Shown: piece by piece, positions 2,087-46,573 of the stretch | How the letters are laid out: the number at the start of each line of letters is the position of its first letter | Numbering within the stretch: the first letter of the stretch is position 1 | From: a virus | Lineage: Duplodnaviria; Caudoviricetes | Direction: 5' to 3' (one strand) | DNA length: 64,000 bases | Virus record (IMG/VR): IMGVR_UViG_2840526738_000004 | Coordinates: 1-64,000 of that record | Translations under genes and position numbers: made by a program | Notes under the pieces: model-generated | What the model was told of the DNA's origin: nothing | Seen by the model: the letters and a program-made list of their open reading frames with translations, nothing else | Databases searched by the model: none

Positions 2087-2328
2087 AACTCAATACCCTC
2101 ATCATTAGCACGTTCTTCTAACAACATTATGTATCTATTCATTGTATGCAACTGTTCACGTAAAACACCCATTGGGCATTTAGGTTCAAACAATAATGTA
2201 CCATTGTCAAATTCATAAATCATATTGTCTAGCTTTTCTGCTCTGATTTTCAATTGATAGTATTCTGCTCTGAATCTATCCTTATAATCGTCACTTTCCA
2301 TTAATTCAATTGTTTCTTTTAATTCCAT
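2083..2328 (-). CDS. crAss001_48-related small helical phage protein (possible nucleotide-signal sponge)
   Basis: Pattern MELKETIELM.S.DYK.RF.AEYYQLKIR...EERA..EGIEL recalled for this family; not searched. Confidence 0.6.
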   Translation of the reverse strand: MELKETIELMESDDYKDRFRAEYYQLKIRAEKLDNMIYEFDNGTLLFEPKCPMGVLREQLHTMNRYIMLLEERANDEGIEL

Positions 2329-2354
2329 ATTTTTGTCCTTTCCTTTATGTGCTT

Positions 2355-2660
2355 TTATTCTTCCTCTATAATGTCATAAGTCTTTTCAAAGATATCAGGC
2401 TTGCATGGATACAATTCTCCATTTACACCCTTAATGACATAATCACCAACACTAACATGATGTTTGCCTTCCAACGTGTTGATCATAAGTTCGGCTGGCT
2501 TTCCTTCATAATCTTCAAAAAACATTGTTCCATTCATTAGTGCTTGTGCAGCCCATATTGGTATATATTGCATTCCATTGGTATACATAAAATCCCCATC
2601 GTATTGAAATGCTTCTACTTCTACTGGTTTCTTTCTTGCTTTCATTCCACTACCATCCAA
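2355..2660 (-). CDS. Conserved phage protein with KKPV.VEA...TLEG...GDY.IKGV.GE.YPCKPDIF..TY signature (possibly Acb4-like sponge)
   Basis: Signature is clear in the translation; the Acb4 link is from memory and unverified. Confidence 0.6.
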   Translation of the reverse strand: MDGSGMKARKKPVEVEAFQYDGDFMYTNGMQYIPIWAAQALMNGTMFFEDYEGKPAELMINTLEGKHHVSVGDYVIKGVNGELYPCKPDIFEKTYDIIEEE

Positions 2661-3136
2661 TCATCTGATAACATATCAGCTTGAGATGCAAGCCATCCAA
2701 GTTGCACACCACTTGTGCCAACAAAAGCAATTGTTTTATTTCCCATGTCGCTATGGTCAACATTAACAACTTCATCATTAGTATTCTTATAACTAACGTT
2801 AGTAGCTAGTTCAATGTATTGGTTCTTTCCATTCCATCCTTTTCTAGCTAACTTCAATCCTCTCTTTACAAGCTTGATAGCATCTCCAAAACTCATATAT
2901 GCTACTCCGCCTAAGATGGGAGTATCTTCATCTCTCGCAAAACCCCACTCATCAGATAAAATATTTTCCAAAGTATAATCAACTCGTTGGGTTTCTCTAA
3001 TATCTAATACCTCTCCATCTTTTGTATACATCATGATGGTTTCTTTTTCTTTATCCCAAGTCCAATAACCACACCAACTTGGTAGTTTCATTTGATATCC
3101 AAGTTTTAAATAAAATAACGCTTCTTTAAAATCCAT
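2642..3136 (-). CDS. tad2: Tandem two-domain Tad2 / DUF2829 (Thoeris anti-defence 2-like) protein
   Basis: Two repeats of the M.F..A...K.G......W ... DW pattern: MDFKEALFYLKLG...ILSDEW and MSFGDAIKLVKRGLKLARKGWNGK...GWLASQADMLSDDW. Confidence 0.8.
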   Translation of the reverse strand: MDFKEALFYLKLGYQMKLPSWCGYWTWDKEKETIMMYTKDGEVLDIRETQRVDYTLENILSDEWGFARDEDTPILGGVAYMSFGDAIKLVKRGLKLARKGWNGKNQYIELATNVSYKNTNDEVVNVDHSDMGNKTIAFVGTSGVQLGWLASQADMLSDDWMVVE

Positions 3137-3148
3137 TTTATTATCCTC

Positions 3149-3433
3149 CTATAGCTTAATAGCTTTATTGTCCCATTTCTTGTATGCATCTAAATATATT
3201 TCTTTTTTATCGCCATTATAAGTTATTTCATAATACATTCCATCACTTATATTTGTACTTGCTAAAGCTTTGTTATTCTGTAACGTTTTGCATGACCAAA
3301 CAATATATATATCATTCTCTGTAATTTTCTTTTTGTCTGTCTGATCAACGTTACTATTAAAATAGTTTGCTACAATTTTTTTGCATAATTGTAAAAATTC
3401 GTTATTACCCATATTATTTATCTCCTTCACCAA
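3149..3433 (-). CDS. DUF6275-like conserved phage protein
   Basis: Motif VWSCKTLQNNKAL.ST..SDGMYYEITYNGDK.E.Y.DAYKKW, recalled family signature. Confidence 0.7.
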   Translation of the reverse strand: MVKEINNMGNNEFLQLCKKIVANYFNSNVDQTDKKKITENDIYIVWSCKTLQNNKALASTNISDGMYYEITYNGDKKEIYLDAYKKWDNKAIKL

Positions 3434-24935: not shown

Positions 24936-24956
24936 AGGGTAGAACTTGTCTACCCT
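24936..24956 (-). terminator. Hairpin terminator after the ATPase gene
   Basis: AGGGTAGAC-AA-GTTCTACCCT followed by TTATAT on the minus strand. Confidence 0.65.
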
Positions 24957-27175: not shown

Positions 27176-27189
27176 TAAATCATAAGGTG

Positions 27190-28008
27190 TTAGTCACACC
27201 TTTGCTTTATATACTCATTTAAAGATATTAAATTATAATAACTCCCACCAATATTCCTATAAACATTGTTTGGCGTATCATATTTAAGTAACTCTGCCTT
27301 CTTTGAGTTTCTAATATCTTCAAGTGTGAACATCGTAAGGCATTTACTTTGAAGTTCTTTTTTCAGAGTTGTTATGATGCTCACTGGACTTAATTTTGTT
27401 GACACTCTACTTTGGAAAAAGTATCCTTCACGTTCTCTTTTTTCTTTTCCTCGTATTTCTCTACGTTTATTCCAAGTTTTTATTTTATTACATAATTCAA
27501 TATCATAATTTTTCATATATTTATATAGATCATAGGACATTGTCTTTCCCAAACACTTTTTGTTTAAAAAATCAATGTCATCAGTTTTTAAATTTAATAC
27601 ATCATCTACTTTAAATAAATATTCATATACAAGCAGAATATAACATGCAATTGAAACATCAACTTCTGAAGCTATATCCAATATTTCATTCTTAGAAAGT
27701 ATTGTAAATTCATCTTTTCCTTGATCGAGTCGAACTTCTTTTAATGTGTATTTTAGAGTTCCAAGCCCTTTTTCCTCTAAATACATCTTGAATTTCTCTA
27801 AAGAGTATTGTTTCAAATATAGAGTTGCTGAACTATCTTCATTTTTACTTTCTTGTAAGAATATTTCGCAATCACTTTTACTAGGTACTATGAAATCTTC
27901 ACTTGTAATTAACTTTGATATGTTGAATTTATAATTTTTTGCTGTTCTCTCAGAGTTAGTTATGCACACATAATTATAAAAGTCATTCAAAACTTCTTTG
28001 GTTTTCAT
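27190..28008 (-). CDS. Degenerate tyrosine-recombinase-fold protein (possible repressor)
   Basis: SAM-like N-terminus (SERTAKNY) and catalytic-domain layout, but G.R becomes YLFK and HxxR becomes EDIR. Confidence 0.7.
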   Translation of the reverse strand: MKTKEVLNDFYNYVCITNSERTAKNYKFNISKLITSEDFIVPSKSDCEIFLQESKNEDSSATLYLKQYSLEKFKMYLEEKGLGTLKYTLKEVRLDQGKDEFTILSKNEILDIASEVDVSIACYILLVYEYLFKVDDVLNLKTDDIDFLNKKCLGKTMSYDLYKYMKNYDIELCNKIKTWNKRREIRGKEKREREGYFFQSRVSTKLSPVSIITTLKKELQSKCLTMFTLEDIRNSKKAELLKYDTPNNVYRNIGGSYYNLISLNEYIKQRCD

Positions 28009-35212: not shown

Positions 35213-38200
35213 TTATTTCATCTCTGTTCTTAAATAATACTTAATCAATCTTTCTTCACCGATTTCGTCAATAGCTTTTTTTGCTAATTCCTCGGTGTCA
35301 AAGAAAATACCGCCATAATTTCTTGAATTCCAAAAATCAGGTACAATTTTGTTATTATACATGAGTATACAAAAGTTGTTATAATCAAACTTAAACGTTC
35401 TCCTACCATATTTCAGCATGATAGCCTCAACTTTTCGGCGTTCATATTCAAATTTAGCTTCTTGTTCTGTTAAGAAAACATTACCCATTTCTCTTGCTTT
35501 TTTATCAATTTTATCACCATCCCAAGAATATTTTGAAATATCTCCGCAATCTTCGATAATATAATATACATCTTCATTTTCCAAATCCCATACCGTTTTA
35601 GGTTTTGGTTTTATCAATATCTTTTCTAATTCTTTTTCTTTTACTTCATAATCTCCATACTTGTCCATAGCTTCTTTTAGTTTCATATTTTAACCCATCC
35701 TTTCTACATCTTTACATTTACGTTCATATTCACGTTTTAAACTTGTCCAATAACGCCTGTTTTGCTTCCTTTATCGTCTTAAAGCAATCAGATTCTTCCA
35801 GCATATATGACATACCATAACATCCGTATAAAACTCTATTAAAATCTAATTTTATATCAGTTACATAACCAAACTTTATCTGTTCTTGGTCAATGTAATA
35901 AAATCCTTCATTTAATTCAAATTTAGCCTTCATATTTTCCTCCTACACATTAATCGTGTTATTTGATACTTCGGCAAATTGCACATGAATTCCATTTTGC
36001 TGTAAATCTTCAACTAGATCCATAACATTAACTTTTCGTTTCCCAGCATTAGCTTGTCTTATCTTTGCGTTGTAAAATTCACGTTGCAATTGCCTGTATT
36101 TAATTTCTTCATCATTGAAAGTGACGATACCATAGATGTTCGTTCTATCCATGGTATCTCTCACAACTGCTGTCTTTAACATTTCAAATCATCCTCATCT
36201 TTCAAAGGTTTGAGCTTTTTCTTGACGAACTTGTAAATACGTTCGTTTACCTGTTTATAATCCTCTTTATCAGTGCTAACCATAAGTTTTTTAACACATT
36301 CATCCATTAACGGTGTATCAACTATCTCAAACAGGCATGAGTGACCACTTCTATCTTTTACATTGAGCTTTTTATCAATGACCTTACACATTTGCATAAT
36401 TTCATTTTCACACACTAACCTATTTCTTACTACTTTCATTCCAACACCTCCAATGCACCAATCTTGATTTCATAAATCGCTTGCTCATAACCATCTCCGT
36501 AGCCAATCTCATAATCAGCGTTGAAGTAATCTTTTTGCCACAAATAAAGGTTGCCTACGAGCGATACAGCTAACAAGCAACCTAATACACATATTAACTT
36601 TTTCATATCCTAAACTCCTTATTTCAGCTTAAAAAGTTCATTTATATTCACGTGGTCAATTCCAATATATACAAATTCTGCTGAATTATCATGTGCTTCT
36701 TTTAAGCTACATGAGTATGCACACATATCTCCAATATAGCTGTCCGCATTAAATTCCTCATGTTCATCTGCTGTTTCTTTAATATAATCTCTAGCAATTT
36801 GGAAATTATCTGTAATTACATTACTCCATTTTGAGCCATCTTTTTCTTTTATATAAACAATATATGCTTCTTGTTTATTTTCAGGTACATTCCACAAGAA
36901 ACACTCTAGTATGCCACATAACATTGTGAAACCATATAAACTTCCATCTTCATTTTCTTCAAAGTTATCTGCGTATAAATCGCCAGCTTTTCTTTCTAAC
37001 TCAGTTAACGTTCTATCAAACAAATTAGGATCGAGCGCTAATTTATCTGCAAAATCCTCAGTATAAATAGCTGGGCAATAGTACTCGCTATCATTTACCA
37101 TTTCTATCCATTCTTGTAATAATGGGCTACATGTACTGATATTAGGCTTATTTGTTAACTCACGATAATAGCAATCTTGGTTCAAGATATCTTCAATCAG
37201 CTGTTTATCAACTTCATCATTTTCGTTATATATTTCGCCAGACACGAATACATGACCTTCTTTGTTGTTAACCCAATATATGATGTCGTATAATTCATAT
37301 TCATTTTCGCCTTCTGCTATTGTTGTATCAAAACATGCAACAACTTTGACACCATTAAATTCCTTTTCTCTTTCACCGTTTTTAACTTGTTCTAAGTATC
37401 TTAATTCTGCTTCATTAACTTCTATTGACATATCATTTTCCTCCTGTCATTTCTTGCACAACTTCACACATTCTCAAATATAAAAGTTCTCTTAAATCAT
37501 TATCATTTTTGAGATGTACAAATTCTTCTTTAGTTATCGTATCATCACAATCAATACTTTCAAAAGTATTATTATTAGGATTATAACGATAATAGTTTAT
37601 AAATAATTCAAAATAATCATTTGTTTCAACTAAGACTAATTCTTGCGCAATATCACGTTTACTTAACGTCATTAGTACATCACTTTCTAAATCTCTAATA
37701 CTAGTTCTACCGTTAATTACATTAGATACATCTTTTATAATTTTATTTGACATGGTTTAGTCCTCACTTTATCTCTTGAATGTTTGCATATAATCTGTTA
37801 AAATGAAGGCAGGAAGTATTACTACAACCTGCCTAAGTAATTAGCGGTCAATCCACTTTTTAGGGAAATAGACAGCTATGTTAGGAGCATTGAGCACCAC
37901 CATAAACAGCACTAAGCCGATGATAAGTGCTGGGTAACTCAATGTGCAACAAAACGTGTAATTTAGTGCCATGCTTGCAAGGAATAGCGCTGCAAATACA
38001 CGTTTTTTTGGTGTATAACGATACATACTATCATCCTCCTTTTCGTATCGTTTGAGGTGTTGGCAGATGTTTTACTGCCCCCGTTGACACCTCATGTAAT
38101 CTATGAATGGTTTTATTAAAGGGTGCCTTTTACAGCACCCTGTGTTTTTTATTCTACAATGCGCCAGTCGGCATAATGCCCATTTGCGCCATAATCAATA

Positions 38201-41200
38201 GGATTGTCATTTAGATCCAAACCTTCATTCGTGCCATACCAATTACGAACGTACAATTCTTGACCAGTTTGTGTATCAAAGATGACAATACTTTGTTCAG
38301 TATAACATGCGTTCTTGTCTGCTAATTCCATTGCTTCCTCGATTGTGTCGGCATATAGATTACCAGTACCTGTTCTAAAATCTACCATATAGTTTTTCAT
38401 ATTATTTACACCCTTTCCATTCTTCAAATGTAATTTCTGTAATACGTCCTATTCTCCTTGTTTTGTCAGTAAACTTAAGTGTTACATATTCCCTTAACTC
38501 TTTAATTGACATTTCAACCTCATCTTCGTCAAATGTAAAGTCAATATGTGCCCATTCTGGGAATAGTTGCTCTATACTTTCAATAGTTGCACGTTCGTCA
38601 TAAAAGAAACATTTGTTCATTAATTCTTTTAAGATAAGTACATTTATCTTGTTACGTTCTTTGATAAATTCGTTCCACAACACGTCAATTCTGTTTAATT
38701 CAATCATTGTCCATCCCTCAACTTTCTATACGTGCTCGACAAAATTTCAATATCAGTTATAAAAATAAACTATATTGTTATCATTATCTGTGCCCTTTGT
38801 TGGTAGTACATAAATATCAAAGTCCAAAAAAGGTATAGTAAAATTTCGTTCGTTTGCTTTTTCCGTTGAGCATGAGAATACATAGTCATTAACGCAACAA
38901 TTATCCCAATGCAATTCACTTTTCTCAATAAACACTTCATTATCGCCTACAAAGTTCCTTATTTCTTCTTGTAATTGGTCTTCACTAAATCTTTTATATA
39001 CTAATGATTCTAAAAACTGTTCAAAGTCAACTTCTGTAATATGTTTCATTCTATTCTTCCTCGCTTTCTAATCTTCCAATCGTTCCCCATTCTTCACAAG
39101 TATCCATAACATAACAGCCTTTTGTATAAAATCTATATATTATCTCTCTCATGCATTTGGGGTTATTTATAATCTCAAATTGATTGTTTACGTATACCTC
39201 AAATTTATTTTGCGAATTATTACTAAGTATTAGTAACATACCGTCATCATAAATATACAGTTCTGCCAACCGAAACCAGCGCATAGAAGCTTCTACACCT
39301 CTATCTAAAACTCTGTTTAATGTAGCAAGTTTTCTTTTATTGCCTTTGACCTGTTCTAGTATTCTTTGTGTGATTTTACGTGCTGTTCTATTGCTTGCCT
39401 TGGAATACGCACTAAGCATGTTGTTATAATCCTCGTACTCATCTTTATGTTTATTTTCTGATTTCATCATCTCAAATAAATGGTTCTCAGCTTTGACACT
39501 GTTTTTTAGAATTTCCAGTAATTTTACATTATCATCCATTTTGATTACCTCTTTTCTTGGCGTTATGCTAATCAAAAGGTACCCTACTAAGGTACCTTGT
39601 TAACTAATTATTGCTTTTACATATACTATATCGTCTTTACAAGTTGCTTCCATGCATATAATGCGCCAAGCTAGTGTACCCGCTATGACATCCTTAATCT
39701 GTATTGTATCGCCATGGACAAGTACATTACCTTGTGCATCCATTACAACTAAACGACCATATATCATGCAATCTAATAGATGATAAAGAGTAAGATGTTG
39801 ACGAAACATTTCACGATTTATGAAGTCAATAATGATATTGTTGACATAACAACACAATCCTTCTTCACTTTCACAATAATATACTTTTCCACCGTCAAAG
39901 TAATCATGTGTTATAGCAAACATTGATAGATTGTTGTATTCCAAATAATCAATTAACATAAAAGGATCAGTTGTATTTATTAGCTCAACGCATTCTAAAT
40001 TACGTGTTACTGCCTCAATTTTGTGTACACCGTCTTTATAGTTGTATCGCACATCAACGTATTGCTCAAACTCTTGTTTTGTCATGTTAGTTGCCCTCGC
40101 TTTCTCTTAAATCATTGTATAATTGCAATAAAGCATTTTTACACCATTCCATATCTTCATATACGTCTTTCATATCATATGGTGCTCCATTTTTGCCATG
40201 CCCTGTATCGTCAAGCCATAAATAAGTTTCATAGCTTACATCCCAATCTTGATAAGTTATATAAATACTTTCAATGAAATCATCAATGTCATCAGTTTTA
40301 CATAATGTTATACTAAAATCTTGTCCTGCTGGACTAAATTGAGATAATAAATAATTTTCTCTTTCATCAGTAATTGTCCACCCTAATTCTTCGATTTTAT
40401 CTAAAACTTCTTGTATTGTTTTCACATTCAACACATCCTTCTTTTTTTTATTTTAATTTTCTTCACTTTCTGTATATTCATTTTCGATGAAATTTAACGC
40501 TTGTTCCAGTGTTTCAAACCTTTGAAAATCGTCTACCGTTCTTATTTTCAATGTATTTTCATCAAAGTGCCTAACTGTATACTTTCTTTCCATGCTATCA
40601 AAGGTATCCTCACTAGTTACAAATAAGTTACCTTCCATTAATTCGGTTTCGATTTTTGTTCCCCAGTATTCCATAGTATCTTTATCAAAATAGTGCAATC
40701 CTTTTTCTTTGCACATTCTGATTACATCTTTCATTCTTAGCATGTTAATTATCCTCGCTTTCCTAAAAGTCTTCATAATATTCCACAAGCCAGTCATAGA
40801 CCTGCTCAGAACCGCATAAAGCCATTAATTTGTTGTAATTTTCTTTGCATCCTACAAATGCTTTAAAACACTCAGATGCTTTTGTATAACCGAAAGCAGC
40901 TTGAAACTCATCAATATCATCATTACATTGTTCCCAAGCTACAGCATCACGTACTAAACAACCTAAACAATTATATAGTGTAGGTTTTAAAAAACCGGGA
41001 TTACATTGATATTCAAATGTGATACTTGTACCTGTATCAGCTCGTAAAATGTTCACAATGTAACGTTTGTGATATTGAGTAAATGTATTGCTTTGGTCTA
41101 AACTTTCTTGGTATTTATATTCTAAAACATCTAAAAAACTCATAATTACTTACCACCTTTCTCTATTAATTCCCTATGCTTTTCTAATCTATAAAGACCA

Positions 41201-42165
41201 CAACCATTTTCTCTATATTCTTTTAGTCTTTGCTTTGCTAGTTTAAGTGTGTATTCACTACATTCACATTCCCATTCGGTGCCATAGTTGCCCATGATAT
41301 CCCAACGGTCAATAGTTTTTCTTTTATACATTTTATTTTCCTCTTTTCCCATAGTAAAGGGTGTACAATTTAGCACACCCTAATTTAGCTATTCTTCTAC
41401 TTCTACTATTTCATCTTCTTCATCAATTACAACGGTAAAATCGCTTGGCGTAACATTTTCAACACCATTTTCATTATAATACTCAATCTTTCCCATGATG
41501 TTTTCTTGTGCAAATTCTAACGCTTCATTTCTTGTTTCATATCCTTCATCAAAGGCTACCATGTTACCGTCTAACCATATTTCATATTTATATGTCATAA
41601 TGCATAACCTCTTATCTTACTTTCCACAATAACAGCCATTCTATCCACATATTGCCATAAATCATAACGTGTATCAAAATCAATTAATTCTAGTTCATGA
41701 GCAAATTCTATTATTCCTTTTGTTTTTTGAATTCTATCATACATAAACCCTAAATTGTTATAATTTTTATAAGCGTAAAATAAAATTTCCAATCTTTCAA
41801 GAAATTTAATAACTTGCTCATTTCTAGTGTCAACGTCTACTACAAGTACAGCTTCTTTAAATTGATATTTCATAATGCTTACCTCGACTTTCTTATAACT
41901 CATAATATCTTTCTTTATATGCCAGTAACTCGCTACAATAAAATCTACAATTTACATCTTCTGTTTCAAGTATTTCTCTTAATGATGACACTTCATCAGC
42001 ACCAACAGCATCTTGAATTGCCTTGAACATCTCACTCACAATGATACAACCATCAGTATCCAACTTCATTCCATATTCATTTGTTTGTCCACTGTATTCT
42101 GTATCTGTTACGTCATATTCATTGATTAATTCATTGATTGTCTGTTCTACTTGTTCAAATGTCAT
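35213..42165 (-). CDS. Early region: about 20 small, mostly acidic hypothetical genes
   Basis: Densely packed co-oriented ORFs with Firmicutes-type RBSs; no recognisable enzymes. Confidence 0.7.
38120..38141 (-). terminator. Early-region terminator hairpin (related hairpins at 37807-37834, 39576-39598, 41358-41381)
   Basis: AGGGTGCT-GTAAA-AGGCACCCT-TTAAT on the minus strand; the others are similar GC-rich intergenic stems. Confidence 0.7.
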
Positions 42166-42194
42166 GTTCTTTTCCTCAACTTTCGTTGTAATTC

Positions 42195-42752
42195 AAAGGG
42201 CAGACCATTCAGCCTACCCTGTTAACCATTCATAATTTACATGAGATATCAACCTCACGCCCTAAAATTAGGGATTATATATTTCATATTGGCAACTTGT
42301 ACATTGCCAATCAAAACATATTTTGATATAATGATGTCGTACAAAGTACAACACCAACTACACGTAACATCTATGATTACTTGTAAACTCAAGACTAGGT
42401 TTTCAATCCTAGCAGGCAGGTGCCTTATAGTTCAATGTCACATGATTCAATTTTCAAATATCTGTACATTACAGCTATTCTCACGCACTTGTACCGTTTC
42501 TCAACGTGACGTATGCATGTTTCACAACATTCACACGTGCCCTTTGAATGCTAGTCAATTGGAAATAAACCGTAAAACTTAATGGTTTAAAGCCTCAGTG
42601 ATTAATCTAGTTTTCTGTAGTTTATAGGTTTTTACAAGACCTAGTAACTTGTGTACTTTTTGTACAATTCAATTTTTGATTTTGTCATAACGGCTAGGGT
42701 TACACAACTTAACTTTGTCAGGGTTTGTTTTGTGTTGCCCTTGTCATTTGAC
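42195..42752 (-). ncRNA. Candidate large structured leader/ncRNA of about 560 nt
   Basis: Starts after a consensus promoter, has no credible minus-strand ORF, contains many hairpins including GNRA loops, and ends in a terminator-like stem at 42197-42220. Confidence 0.55.
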
Positions 42753-42758
42753 ACCTAT

Positions 42759-42787
42759 ATGATAATCGATAAATGATTACATGTCAA
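42759..42787 (-). promoter_or_regulatory. Major leftward (early) promoter with nearby TGTCA repeats (possible operators)
   Basis: TTGACA-17 nt-TATCAT; TGTCA/TGACA recurs several times in about 42680-42790. Confidence 0.8.
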
Positions 42788-42883
42788 CACTTTTTGAGAA
42801 CTTTTTTTAAAATTTTTTTGCTAATTCTAAAACTATTGATTTTTCTTTCTATATATACGACTAACAAAAAGGGTGTGAAATAT

Positions 42884-43258
42884 ATGAGCATTAAGGCAAA
42901 AACAAAAGCTTTTATAGCTATGAAAAACATAAATCTTACCAAAATGGCGAACGAAAAAGGTATAGCAAAACAAAATTTGTCTAGGACTTATGGCAGAGAT
43001 ACACTCAAAATAAAAGAGTTGTTGGAATTATGTGCTATTGCTGATTGTAGACTGTCTATTGTTGATAATAGAACTAACCGTGAATTAATAAATTATAACA
43101 AGTATGATATAGCGGCAGAAATTATAATGGATATGATTAATGGCAATAACAATGATAGTTTTGTTGATATATATGATAGTTACAATAGCTATAATACAGC
43201 CGAGGAGCCAACACAAGAACAGCCCAAAATGAGGAAACCAATATCACGTAAAAAATAG
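42884..43258 (+). CDS. XRE/HTH transcriptional regulator (CI-like), divergent from the early operon
   Basis: MSIKAKTKAFIAMKNINLTKMANEKGIAKQNLS HTH. True start is probably 42884, not the track start. Confidence 0.8.
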   Translation: MSIKAKTKAFIAMKNINLTKMANEKGIAKQNLSRTYGRDTLKIKELLELCAIADCRLSIVDNRTNRELINYNKYDIAAEIIMDMINGNNNDSFVDIYDSYNSYNTAEEPTQEQPKMRKPISRKK

Positions 43259-43270
43259 CAACACTCATAT

Positions 43271-43314
43271 GTACCAGTTACCCGTCGGGATTACTCGCAA
43301 CTGGTACTATTTTT
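43271..43314 (+). terminator. Intrinsic terminator
   Basis: GTACCAGTT...AACTGGTAC followed by TATTTTT. Confidence 0.8.
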
Positions 43315-44396
43315 ATGGATCAGTCGACCTACTATATATGATATTATGTATGCTTATGATTATATAGGTTTATTTGTGTGATATTATGTGATTATATGAT
43401 AGATATAGATATAAGGCATGATATGACATAAGATATACTTATTAAGTATGATGAGTGAGAATGGGATGAAGTAACGTGGAATAGGTATATAGCATGAGAT
43501 ACTAGATGATATAGAGTGTGATACTATATTATGAGATGTTCGATGTTAGGACTATATCTAATTAGTATGTTCGATGACAATCGAATGGACTTGGTTCCAA
43601 TGTGAAGTAAACTTCACAACTATATATACGTGTAAGATATATATTACATGCATAGATAATTAACAAATAAACCATGAATAGCAGATAATCAACTGGTACG
43701 ATACTACCATATAGATAATATTGATTATGTTCGCCGATTATATAGTTAGGTGGGGGTGGTTTACTATTCAAAGTTATGAAAAAGTCGTGAAAATCGCCCC
43801 ACCTAGTCAGCTCTAGCAATACACCAATATTCAAAATATGCCTATTTAATAGGCTTTTTTAATGCTCATTCAGATCCCTTGACACCCCTACCTTAATTTT
43901 CTTACACACCATTTCCATTACCCAAAAAAACTTTCTCAAAAATTTTCTGGGGGCTATTTTGCAAAGTGTAAAGTGGTTAAAATTGCCTATTTTTGACCTA
44001 TTTTCGCCCTGTTTTTCTGCCCTATTTTTACACCATAAACATCCAGTTTTATATACCGAAAATCACATGTTTTACAGATGTTGTTTTTACATGTTTTTTA
44101 CCGTTGTTACACCGTTGTTGTTTATGTAGTAAAATAGATGTTCCACATGTTCATTTACCTATTCAACGTTACTGAATAATATTCTGGTACCTTTTCACGC
44201 ATATTGTTAGTCATGTCTAATATGTAAAGTGTACTTGTTAATTATATTTAGCTTCGCACAGTGAATATATTTACTGGTATGCTTCCCTCTTACCTCTCAC
44301 AATTACCTATCCATTTCCATTTGTACCATTCACACACTCGTAAAATCAATTCTAAGGCACCATACGTTCGTTCTGAGCAACTTTAGCATTTGAAAC

Positions 44397-44565
44397 GAGT
44401 ATTAATTAGGGTAAACCTTAAAACTTCTTAAATCGAGCGTATTAGCCCTTTTACGGTATATCTATCTCTTCCGAGGTATACAATATCCCTTTTAAGGTAT
44501 CATACGAGCTGTCTGAGAGGTTTTACAGGTTAACATGAGTATCAATTAGGGTATACCCCTTAAAA
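44397..44565. repeat. Imperfect direct repeat GAGTAT(T/C)AATTAGGGTA(A/T)AC(C)CTTAAAAC, two copies
   Basis: Copies at about 44397 and about 44537. Confidence 0.75.
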
Positions 44566-44739
44566 CGCCTAGAATGACCTCTAAAGAGCTTATACGGGTA
44601 TTGGCACGAATATCAAGACACGACATGGAACCTTTTGGGTTAGGTTTAGGGTTAACAGGTATGGTTTACAGGTATTACATTTAACATTAACCATTTATAG
44701 GATTATATAATCAATCATTGTTAACCCAACATATGTTGG

Positions 44740-44786
44740 ATGAGTGAAACGAATACAACAAATGTCATGAATGAGTGAAACGAATG
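44740..44786. repeat. Direct repeat ATGAGTGAAACGAAT, two copies, with degenerate GAATG(A/T)AAT copies at about 45070-45125
   Basis: Seen directly in sequence. Confidence 0.75.
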
Positions 44787-45287
44787 AATGTCATTACAAA
44801 CCCCATTTGCTCTATTGGTTTATGTGCTAGATCTTGTGATTAGGAATACAATAGCAGGATTGAACGTTAGCCATCAGGGAGAACCTTATTGCGTTTCGAC
44901 ATCAATGTCAAGCCACAGGTCAATGTGTTGTAGCATTCAATAGCGAATATTATTATTCGTCATGAATGTCGATTAATATTTGCCTATCAGACATTCATAA
45001 TCACATAGGTTAACAGGTTCATATTCTTGTGTTATAGGGTTCATTTACCTGACTTGACTGATAATTTAGTATGAATGAAATAGTATTTATGAATGTAATG
45101 AATAAATACTATGTAATGAATACTAAATACTAACTTCTAATTAACTCCTAAAAGAGAAAGAAAATATATATACTACGTATATATACAAAAGAAAGATGAA
45201 AAGGGTTCTAATAAGGTTTCTTATGTACGTACATATATGACTGTTTAGATACAAAAAAAGATGCCCATTTCTGGACACCTAATCCTG

Positions 45288-45551
45288 TTATTTAGATTCT
45301 GTGTTATGCGCAATTTTATCTAGCAATTCTATAATTTCTGAAAAGCCTCCTACAATGACAGCTGTGACAAAGCATATGATCATTGCTGCAAGAGCAGAAT
45401 CTTTGTAAAGAGGATTGCTAAGTATATACCAACAAATTCCAATTACAACTAGCAATGCTGCTACTGCTCTTAGGACAAAAGCCCAGAAATTGTAAACTCC
45501 AAAAAATTTCTTTAATTCGTTCATTTTTAATTCTCCCTTCATGCTATACAA
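45288..45551 (-). CDS. Small two-TM membrane protein
   Basis: Two hydrophobic helices. Confidence 0.65.
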   Translation of the reverse strand: MYSMKGELKMNELKKFFGVYNFWAFVLRAVAALLVVIGICWYILSNPLYKDSALAAMIICFVTAVIVGGFSEIIELLDKIAHNTESK

Positions 45552-45598
45552 AATAATAACACTTATGTCACAAAAAGAAAAGCCCTTACAAGAGAGCC

Positions 45599-46573
45599 TT
45601 ACTTTACAAACATATTATACATAATTTTGTCCATATTACATTTTGCTATTTTTGAAGCATGGACATATCTCATTGTTGTAGATCTATTGGCATGCCCCAT
45701 CAACTTTTGCAATGTATCTTCATCAGTACCATTCTCAATCATTGCTGTAGCAAAAGTGTGTCGCAATGTGTGAGGATGAATCGTTTCATAATCAAGTCCA
45801 GCTTTGATTGCAGCATTCTTGACGATTGTATTGATTGTACCCACAGATATTTTTTTACCCTTACTGTCTGGTTGTGTCGTGTGCGATACAAACATATACT
45901 CGTTTTTATCTTTCCACGTTAGATTTCTTTTTTCAAGATATTCTGTAAGTTGTACGTACAAGTCTTTATGGATTATTTCAATACGAACCTTGTCTCCTTT
46001 TCCCTTTGGTTGGATTACATATGACTCATCACTCTTGAAAATATCCCCAACTTTTAAATCTGTTATCTCAGCACGTCGCATTCCTGTAGTTAGCATTAGA
46101 GTGACAATGATTGTGTTACGGAAACCAGCGATACCTTTTGACATTCCAGCACCTAGTATCAGCCTTCTGCCTTCTTCGATGGATAATGCCCTATCCTGAC
46201 TAAATTCTGAGATTGCGTTCTTGTATCTGTAACATCCTTCGTCTGTTGATATTGGATTATAGTTCATGACACCAACTGATTTACGTGACAAGAACTTGTA
46301 AAAACTGTTTAGGGCAGCAAGCTTTGCATTTACTGTAGCACGCTTCATTCCCTTTTTAATTTGTTCTGAACTCCAATCGTTGACAATTTCAGGTGTTACG
46401 CTTCTGATATCTTCCAGTGTAATGTCTTTACTGCTTTTCTTGTTGAAGAACTGCAAGATTGACCGTGCATAACTATCTTTGGTTTTATCTGAAAGATTGT
46501 TTGTGTACATGTCTGCATAATTAATTTCGTTAGCTTTCCCTACTTGTGTATCGTTTAACATTATCTGTTCCAT
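45599..46573 (-). CDS. Tyrosine recombinase (XerC/D-like, intact catalytic set)
   Basis: TGMRRAE, KGKGDK, HTLRH, MGH, RY. Confidence 0.93.
   Translation of the reverse strand: MEQIMLNDTQVGKANEINYADMYTNNLSDKTKDSYARSILQFFNKKSSKDITLEDIRSVTPEIVNDWSSEQIKKGMKRATVNAKLAALNSFYKFLSRKSVGVMNYNPISTDEGCYRYKNAISEFSQDRALSIEEGRRLILGAGMSKGIAGFRNTIIVTLMLTTGMRRAEITDLKVGDIFKSDESYVIQPKGKGDKVRIEIIHKDLYVQLTEYLEKRNLTWKDKNEYMFVSHTTQPDSKGKKISVGTINTIVKNAAIKAGLDYETIHPHTLRHTFATAMIENGTDEDTLQKLMGHANRSTTMRYVHASKIAKCNMDKIMYNMFVK

Follow-up and report, generated by a model that had tools for sequence, protein, structure and literature searches.

The stretch of DNA analysed here, hereafter the window, comprises the first 64,000 nucleotides (nt) of the 76-kb IMG/VR virus record IMGVR_UViG_2840526738_000004, and the element in question is the long leader of the early gene operon on its minus strand. 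The window has a G+C content of 33% and its genes are arranged in two arms. The minus-strand early arm runs from 42165 down to 74 and opens with a gene (41893..42165, ATG at 42165) for an acidic protein of 90 amino acids (aa) that belongs to no known family. Divergently oriented, on the plus strand at 42884..43258, lies the gene for a Cro/CI-type helix-turn-helix (HTH) repressor of 124 aa (Pfam HTH_26, E 2.9e-5), and a tyrosine integrase gene is located at 45599-46573. The nearest named relative, a distant one, is the Clostridium innocuum phage Amboise, an inducible prophage of an OMM12 strain (PMC10197239; bioRxiv 10.1101/2024.12.03.626644), whose second HTH protein is 55% identical to the window repressor. 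In the related contig L010, homology to the window ends at 43728, beside ordinary bacterial (host) genes, which indicates that the element integrates and that its attachment site lies near this position. Together, the repressor and integrase genes, the end of the L010 homology and the inducibility of Amboise identify the stretch upstream of the first gene as the ~587-nt untranslated leader of a repressor-controlled early (PL-type) lytic operon in a temperate phage of a gut Firmicute.

Promoter, folding and coding content of the leader

The original prediction had set a TTGACA-17-TATCAT promoter apart from the first gene by about 590 nt. Indeed, this sequence (42787-42759, minus strand) agrees with the sigma-70-type consensus at 11 of 12 positions and is the best minus-strand promoter match in the region 41800-45600. 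Transcription from this early leftward (PL-type) promoter, hereafter PL, is predicted to start at about 42752-42754 and, since the first gene starts at 42165, the resulting leader measures ~587 nt. All of the hairpins that had been listed for the leader were recovered in its sequence and folds, and the picture of a long, hairpin-dense leader behind the main early promoter was thereby confirmed. The whole leader folded with -160.2 kcal/mol as compared to a shuffle mean of -124.5 (z -6.45), a value that was equalled by none of 100 shuffles, and the complementary strand gave a z-score of -5.33. The excess was unevenly distributed along the leader, in agreement with a 200-nt sliding fold scan. Specifically, the last 174 nt (42166-42339) displayed a strand-specific excess, with a z-score of -5.31 in the sense and -2.18 in the antisense direction, whereas the sense strand of the first 413 nt folded like ordinary sequence (z -1.71 sense, -2.94 antisense).

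As had been proposed, the leader is non-coding. The plus-strand open reading frame (ORF) of 113 aa at 42241-42582 has neither a ribosome-binding site nor a Pfam match, and among near-identical relatives it has undergone four non-synonymous changes versus one synonymous change. Moreover, it is missing from the alternative leader allele described below, where an unrelated frame of 50 aa is found in its place, and it is thus not conserved as a protein. Small ORFs with a Shine-Dalgarno sequence were sought on both strands of the leader and none was convincing, while a search for transfer RNA or transfer-messenger RNA genes returned none.

The leader matched no known family of large or antiterminating RNAs. 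When the whole window was searched with the covariance models of Rfam 15, including ROOL, GOLLD, EAR and all other families, there were no matches at the gathering score. At the permissive threshold of E up to 10, the region 42000-43000 yielded chance-level hits to unrelated eukaryotic families, the best of which reached 20 bits against a gathering score of 85. The leaders of related phages likewise had no match in Rfam.

Conserved ends and an exchangeable middle

With the first-gene protein as bait, twelve contigs were retrieved from gut metagenomes and one NCBI assembly. Their leaders represent two alleles, A (that of the window) and B, each of which is present in six contigs. The allele-A contigs are at least 98% identical and differ at ~12 positions, and the allele-B contigs differ at a single position. 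An allele-A variant is present in the assembly GCA_027667685.1. In a comparison of the two alleles, the first ~85 nt of the transcript are ~95% identical and the last ~125 nt before the start codon are 100% identical, whereas the 390-425 nt between these shared ends cannot be aligned. The allele of the middle tracks the allele of the repressor in 12 of 12 loci: allele A occurs with a repressor of 124/98 aa and allele B with one of 87/96 aa, the two proteins being 30% identical. Since the middle always accompanies one repressor allele, we conclude that it belongs to the immunity block. The leader thus consists of three modules, namely a 5′ hairpin, an exchangeable non-coding middle and a 3′ hairpin pair of which the second hairpin is terminator-like, and only the two ends are conserved as folded RNA.

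In the window, the allele-specific middle (42281..42667, minus strand) holds no ORF with a ribosome-binding site and includes a cluster of GNRA hairpins at ~42482-42552. The leader had been described as rich in GNRA tetraloops, and for the window this enrichment is real: four GNRA-capped hairpins with at least four stem pairs were counted versus 0.66 expected (P = 0.003), and the antisense strand of the same leader contained none. One natural variant replaces a GAGA loop by GUGA. The description applies to allele A alone, as no GNRA enrichment was seen in allele B, in the Amboise-type leaders or in contig L042.

The latter, more distant relatives were found with a profile of the repressor protein, which retrieved the Amboise-type contigs (L044-L046), L041 and L042. 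Every relative found in this way has a long leader of 530-1250 nt. In L042, the first called minus-strand gene begins 652 nt from the PL-type promoter; for the Amboise type and L041 this gap measures ~1150-1250 nt. On the opposite strand, the Amboise-type leader carries a gene for a 74-aa HTH protein with a strong ribosome-binding site and a gene for a 34-aa hydrophobic peptide, each with its own predicted promoter and terminator. Further searches for homologues, by blastn of phage records, exact-pattern scans of viral and metagenome contigs and protein-anchored scans, added only Amboise and one IMG/VR contig. A scan of a genome collection with the conserved start motif of the transcript gave 22 hits, all of which were dismissed as chance matches in unrelated taxa. 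The structural comparison has only four to five independent lineages behind it.

The 5′ module is an irregular hairpin of 69 nt (42684..42752, minus strand) that starts 1-3 nt after the predicted transcription start. Its closing stem is followed by a stem of 4 bp, a 2x2 internal loop and a stem of 6 bp, and its apical loop is A/C-rich and 22 nt long. The hairpin is ~95% conserved between alleles A and B although the flanks on both sides diverge. A single long, irregular hairpin, opening at the conserved start motif and spanning the initial 55-70 nt of the predicted transcript, is formed in every lineage, with fold z-scores ranging from -1.4 to -5.5, and the distance from the promoter to this motif is equal in allele A, allele B, the Amboise-type leaders and L042. 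Hairpins of the same size and position are built from different partner sequences in Amboise, L041 and L042. As for the closing stem, alleles A and B, Amboise and L041 have one 5′ arm and a matching 3′ arm, with variants that swap U-A for U-G, and L042 has different, mutually complementary arms of 8 bp. The inner stems differ in sequence between allele A and the Amboise type, but their layout is kept. Since a MAFFT alignment of the 5′ hairpins was structurally inconsistent, the case for this module relies on separate folds, and its conservation was judged by inspection of these folds and not by pair counts.

Two further features of the transcript start deserve mention. The palindrome located there was considered as a specificity operator and rejected, as it occurs once in the window at a chance-level background and its sequence has no link to the repressor allele. 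In addition, the PL start motif at 42746-42755 resembles, by eye, an inverted copy of the region around the ribosome-binding site of the repressor gene (42869-42879) in alleles A and B and in Amboise, such that a long plus-strand transcript across PL could fold back onto that ribosome-binding site.

The 3′ module likewise lies on the minus strand. Its first part, a small hairpin (42260-42273) together with a hairpin designated H1 (42240-42259), is 100% identical in alleles A and B, and its second part is the terminator-like hairpin H2 (42197..42220). H1 contains two G-U pairs that would be mismatches on the other strand. H2 has 9-10 pairs, a loop of 4-6 nt and then a short, interrupted U run, and it is positioned ~30 nt upstream of the start codon of the first gene. 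H1, H2 and their linker can be aligned with the sequence upstream of the first gene in Amboise-type phages, and the UGAAU motif in the loop of H2 is common to both. The pairing of H2 is kept in all four lineages, with three of eight pairs preserved via changes on both sides. The remaining differences are swaps of G-C for G-U or U-A for U-G, for which pairing is possible only in the minus-strand RNA. A covariance model of the 3′ module (R1) scored the window copy at 66.7 bits (E 7e-14) and also found the L042 copy, on which it had not been trained, at 91.4 bits in front of the same DUF8033 gene. In the alignment fitted with R1, 88.8% of the cells were paired and 11 of 13 pairs changed on both sides; this alignment is biased towards structure, and its weaker members are generic sites of a hairpin plus U run. 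The original prediction of structure at the RNA level thus gained support from homologues, in the form of compensatory changes at both ends of the leader. A 4-bp hairpin with a GAAA loop (42166..42188, minus strand), predicted with a pair probability of 0.95, immediately precedes the ribosome-binding site of the first gene.

Elements that resemble the 3′ module were also observed elsewhere in the window. An inverted, paralogous copy of H1, linker and H2 is present at 38047-38146 on the plus strand (50.2 bits, E 8.5e-10), where H2 is followed by six T. It is located upstream of a minus-strand gene for a 61-aa membrane peptide and would end a plus-strand antisense transcript. Furthermore, hairpins in the style of H2 lie between early genes on the sense strand, at 41353-41468, 39571-39646 and 24936-24956 (minus strand). 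These share an A-rich lead, a base of GGGU/ACCC or AGGU/ACCU and a short U run, and they may be weak terminators or stabilisers of RNA ends.

Predicted convergent transcription and the proposed working of the leader

Within the leader, a candidate convergent (antisense) promoter was found at 42304..42332 on the plus strand. This TTGCCA-17-TATAAT sequence has an extended -10 (TG) and, as a consensus prediction, matches at 11 of 12 positions; it ranks first among the plus-strand matches of the region and is directed at PL and the repressor gene. In allele B, a plus-strand site with 9 of 12 matches and TG is again found 139-168 nt from the start codon, though the two alleles are unalignable there. 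The Amboise-type leaders have two predicted plus-strand promoters, one of which, that of the peptide gene, has the -10 region of the window promoter. Another plus-strand promoter is common to L042 and the Amboise type, where it resides in a block that is identical in L041, L042 and L044. Predicted opposite-strand promoters are therefore present within the leader in all four lineages. As a scan detected no plus-strand terminator-like sites between the candidate promoter and the repressor gene, a transcript starting at ~42339 would run antisense to ~410 nt of the leader and continue past PL into the repressor gene. A 16-nt direct repeat of the PL -35 and spacer (42773-42788) is found at 42373-42388 with 14 of 16 positions identical. 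This repeat, 400 nt downstream of PL and just past the predicted start of the backward transcript, could be an auxiliary operator or a chance match.

The -35 of the candidate antisense promoter is overlapped by a long hairpin or, equivalently, DNA palindrome (42277..42321, minus strand), with pair probabilities of 0.90-0.97. Allele B has a different 8-bp inverted repeat in its place, and this element may equally be an RNA hairpin or an operator. Further upstream in the leader, a 12-nt stretch at 42538..42549 (minus strand) forms a perfect complement of 42191-42202, the 3′ arm and tail of H2. Only three of 5000 shuffles of the middle reached 12 nt, in a test that was chosen after the repeat had been seen, and in allele B the complementarity amounts to 8 nt (P 0.06). 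When forced in the folding model, the long-range helix with H2 costs 2.4 kcal/mol; conceivably, it could serve as an anti-terminator pairing. However, a related A-rich GGG(G)CA motif of other lineages has no such complementarity to the H2 there.

We consider the chances about even that the leader is the control region of a lysis-lysogeny switch, in which convergent transcription and an attenuator precede the early operon. For this reading we infer that both promoters are active, that transcription is terminated at H2 and that the two transcription units interfere. Transcripts from PL would have to cross the zone of convergent transcription and then the attenuator hairpin before reaching any early gene. 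In the convergent zone, polymerase collisions and allele-specific pairing of sense and antisense RNA would be expected, with the overlapped sequence supplied by the allele-specific middle, and the backward transcript would probably run on into the repressor gene. The lytic arm would thereby be kept shut in the lysogen and the switch would be sharpened, while the 5′ hairpin would protect or mark the transcript.

Several observations weigh against such a switch. All promoters are consensus matches, and promoter-like sites are overall as numerous as in shuffled sequence. The terminator scan accepts the Amboise-type H2 but not that of the window, owing to a weak, interrupted U run with U at only 4-5 of the 8 positions that follow the stem. 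A conserved -10-like block beside the repressor gene suggests a proximal repressor promoter, in which case the distal one may not be needed. In addition, the Amboise-type backward promoters drive real small genes, so that the one in the ORF-less window could be a relic. Lastly, the within-allele identity of at least 98% leaves too little variation for covariation in the middle.

One alternative, which we regard as unlikely, is that the leader is largely a passive mosaic spacer. The middle would then represent the decayed or exchanged remains of small antisense cassettes, and the hairpins would be leftover terminators, operators and palindromes. The operator region close to the promoter and the hairpin preceding the first gene would be the only parts of importance. 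Consistent with this, the Amboise-type HTH and peptide genes occupy the same interval on the opposite strand, allele A and the Amboise-type peptide gene have the -10 region of the backward promoter in common, and the region as a whole is strongly mosaic. The A-rich GGG(G)CA motif also recurs in all lineages at varying positions. On the other hand, a near-consensus backward promoter is present in both alleles at equal distance from the 3′ module, the GNRA enrichment is strand-specific, and six contigs, which come from different samples, share allele A with at least 98% identity, as compared with 40-90% for adjacent blocks. A tblastn search with the Amboise HTH gene found no remnant in the window leader, and the idea of a decayed HTH gene was therefore rejected. 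It is quite improbable, in our judgement, that the leader acts as a cis-acting processive antiterminator, with the 5′ hairpin functioning like HK022 put or as a nut site for some factor, so that RNA polymerase passes H2 and the further terminator-like hairpins of the 42-kb arm. A conserved structured element at the start of the transcript in all lineages would fit this role. So would the lack of a sense-strand gene between PL and H2, because of which no N-like protein would be made first. Moreover, in the Amboise-type leaders PL is separated from the first gene by two terminator-like hairpins, past which there is no sense-strand promoter. The window arm contains H2-like hairpins (41353-41468, 39571-39646) as well as terminator-like sites (24936-24956, 27184-27202), and only one other strong minus-strand promoter was seen in it. 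Yet the 5′ module is a single long irregular hairpin instead of the two stem-loops of put and has no second copy behind another promoter. The terminator-like sites of the arm do not significantly exceed those in shuffles (10 vs 5.4 ± 3.0; 4 vs 5.5). A stabilising role would explain the 5′ hairpin equally well, 5′-terminal hairpins being known as messenger RNA stabilisers in Firmicutes.

Doubtful, too, is a combination of these ideas into an RNA device of two layers, in which a protein-independent antiterminator hairpin at the 5′ end would be set against the conserved attenuator, with the exchangeable cassette in between. Sense-antisense pairing of this cassette would then be a second, RNA-based determinant of immunity that co-evolves with the repressor allele. 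If true, such a device would be one not yet described for Firmicute phages. The lowest probability of all, a very small one, we assign to a stand-alone structured non-coding RNA of ~555 nt that extends from PL to H2, acts in trans and resembles ROOL and GOLLD in kind. The strong predicted promoter, the terminator-like 3′ end, the dense hairpins and the GNRA enrichment are what one might look for in such an RNA. The paralogous module at 38047-38146, by ending a candidate antisense RNA, indicates that the H1-H2 module can serve as an RNA 3′ end. Nevertheless, sibling phages with 95-100% identity in the flanks have an unrelated sequence in place of the middle two-thirds of the leader, a pattern that would not be expected for a large RNA with a conserved tertiary core, and past H2 there is no separate promoter for the first gene. 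It is on account of these two findings that a stand-alone RNA is disfavoured. The ordinary sense folding of the first 413 nt (z -1.7), the lack of GNRA enrichment in the other leaders, the absence of an Rfam match even at E up to 10 and the failure of the searches to find a homologue outside this small phage group point in the same direction. The large ornate RNA of the original prediction, and with it the candidacy for a new class of large RNA, does not hold up. Instead, the leader is of a known kind, a phage early-operon leader with switch architecture, of which it is a variant.

Comparison with known switches and early leaders

Convergent promoters are used in the switches of lambda (PR/PRE), pCF10 (PQ/PX) and coliphage 186 (pR/pL). 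With respect to the working proposed above, lambda PR/PRE and prgQ/prgX of the Enterococcus faecalis plasmid pCF10 would be the closest parallels, and we do not claim that the leader is a member of either system. As in lambda, the repressor gene is divergent from the early promoter, and a promoter inside the early unit, here a predicted one, points back across the early promoter to the repressor gene, which would result in an overlap of sense and antisense transcripts of a few hundred nucleotides. Unlike in lambda, the overlapped stretch contains no cro-like gene or other ORF, and whereas PRE depends on an activator, the backward promoter predicted here is near-consensus. With pCF10 the leader has in common that convergent promoters, which are predicted in our case, lie in a long non-coding leader, and that the repressor gene would be read from a promoter embedded in the leader of the target operon. 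In both systems a terminator, or here the terminator-like H2, is positioned 120-160 nt past that promoter in the sense direction. In pCF10, interference and the countertranscript set the level of read-through. The predicted overlap amounts to ~410 nt here versus 223 nt in pCF10. The latter serves plasmid conjugation, its repressor is a peptide-sensing protein of the RRNPP type, and it has no sequence or protein homology to the present system.

The putL and putR sites of phage HK022 offer a parallel for the 5′ module, being conserved structured RNAs of ~70 nt just downstream of the early promoters of a temperate phage that has no N-like gene before the first terminator. The hairpin at 42684-42752 is such a structured RNA directly downstream of an early promoter and has equivalents in four other lineages. 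It differs from put, which consists of two adjacent stem-loops behind both early promoters, in that it is one irregular hairpin in a phage of a Firmicute host, present as a single copy, with a start motif that occurs once in the window. ROOL and GOLLD are RNAs of a similar size class and, like EAR, are prophage-associated and rich in hairpins. The leader departs from all three in having no covariance-model match, a core that is not conserved across siblings and an RNA that is fused to an operon. Finally, the CI RNA of P4 and the c4 RNA of P1/P7 exemplify untranslated early-operon leaders that differ between heteroimmune relatives. These are defined, processed RNAs with complementary targets, whereas the present leader has one 12-nt complementarity that is weak in allele B.

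The phages compared here form a group without a cro-like first gene, which have instead a leader of 0.5-1.2 kb with RNA hairpins at both ends and predicted backward promoters within. The gut commonly harbours temperate phages of Erysipelotrichaceae and Clostridium innocuum, whose switches between lysis and lysogeny are unstudied. Amboise itself blooms during colitis (bioRxiv 10.1101/2024.12.03.626644). If convergent transcription and attenuation do operate as proposed, they would explain how induction is gated in these phages, and also why a non-coding block is exchanged along with the repressor gene among heteroimmune relatives.

Other elements of the window and the related leaders

Between the repressor gene and the genes for a small membrane protein and the integrase, ~2 kb of the window (43259-45290) is without ORFs. 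Relatives retain this block with 92-99% conservation, including those in which the repressor and the middle of the leader have been swapped. The end of the L010 homology at 43728 places the attachment site within it, and the block is unusually long for attP arms. In another phage (L006, 2300-3300), a homologue of the first gene with 90% identity is situated mid-way in a same-strand operon, where it is preceded by a different upstream region of 350 nt without the leader modules.

The peptide gene of the Amboise-type leaders is part of an unannotated opposite-strand cassette, which is located at 2302-2513 (plus strand) in L044 and is also present in Amboise ON453899. The cassette has an extended -10 promoter, a short upstream ORF and a bidirectional terminator, and the hydrophobic peptide of 34 aa that it encodes has a basic tail. 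The start of its transcript can pair with its own ribosome-binding site, and the layout resembles that of a type I toxin. The ORFs that PHANOTATE placed opposite to it in Amboise (L003 4083-4430) are probably spurious annotations.

A non-coding block of higher G+C content lies at 2900-3300 (minus strand) in L042 and at 2920-3290 (minus strand) in L004. It is 92% identical between L042 and Amboise and has no Rfam match. The block includes a hairpin with a compensatory change of U-A to C-G as well as a conserved plus-strand promoter, TTGACT-17-TATACT, and in L042 a plus-strand terminator-like hairpin follows ~115 nt downstream of this promoter. We consider this block a candidate small RNA.

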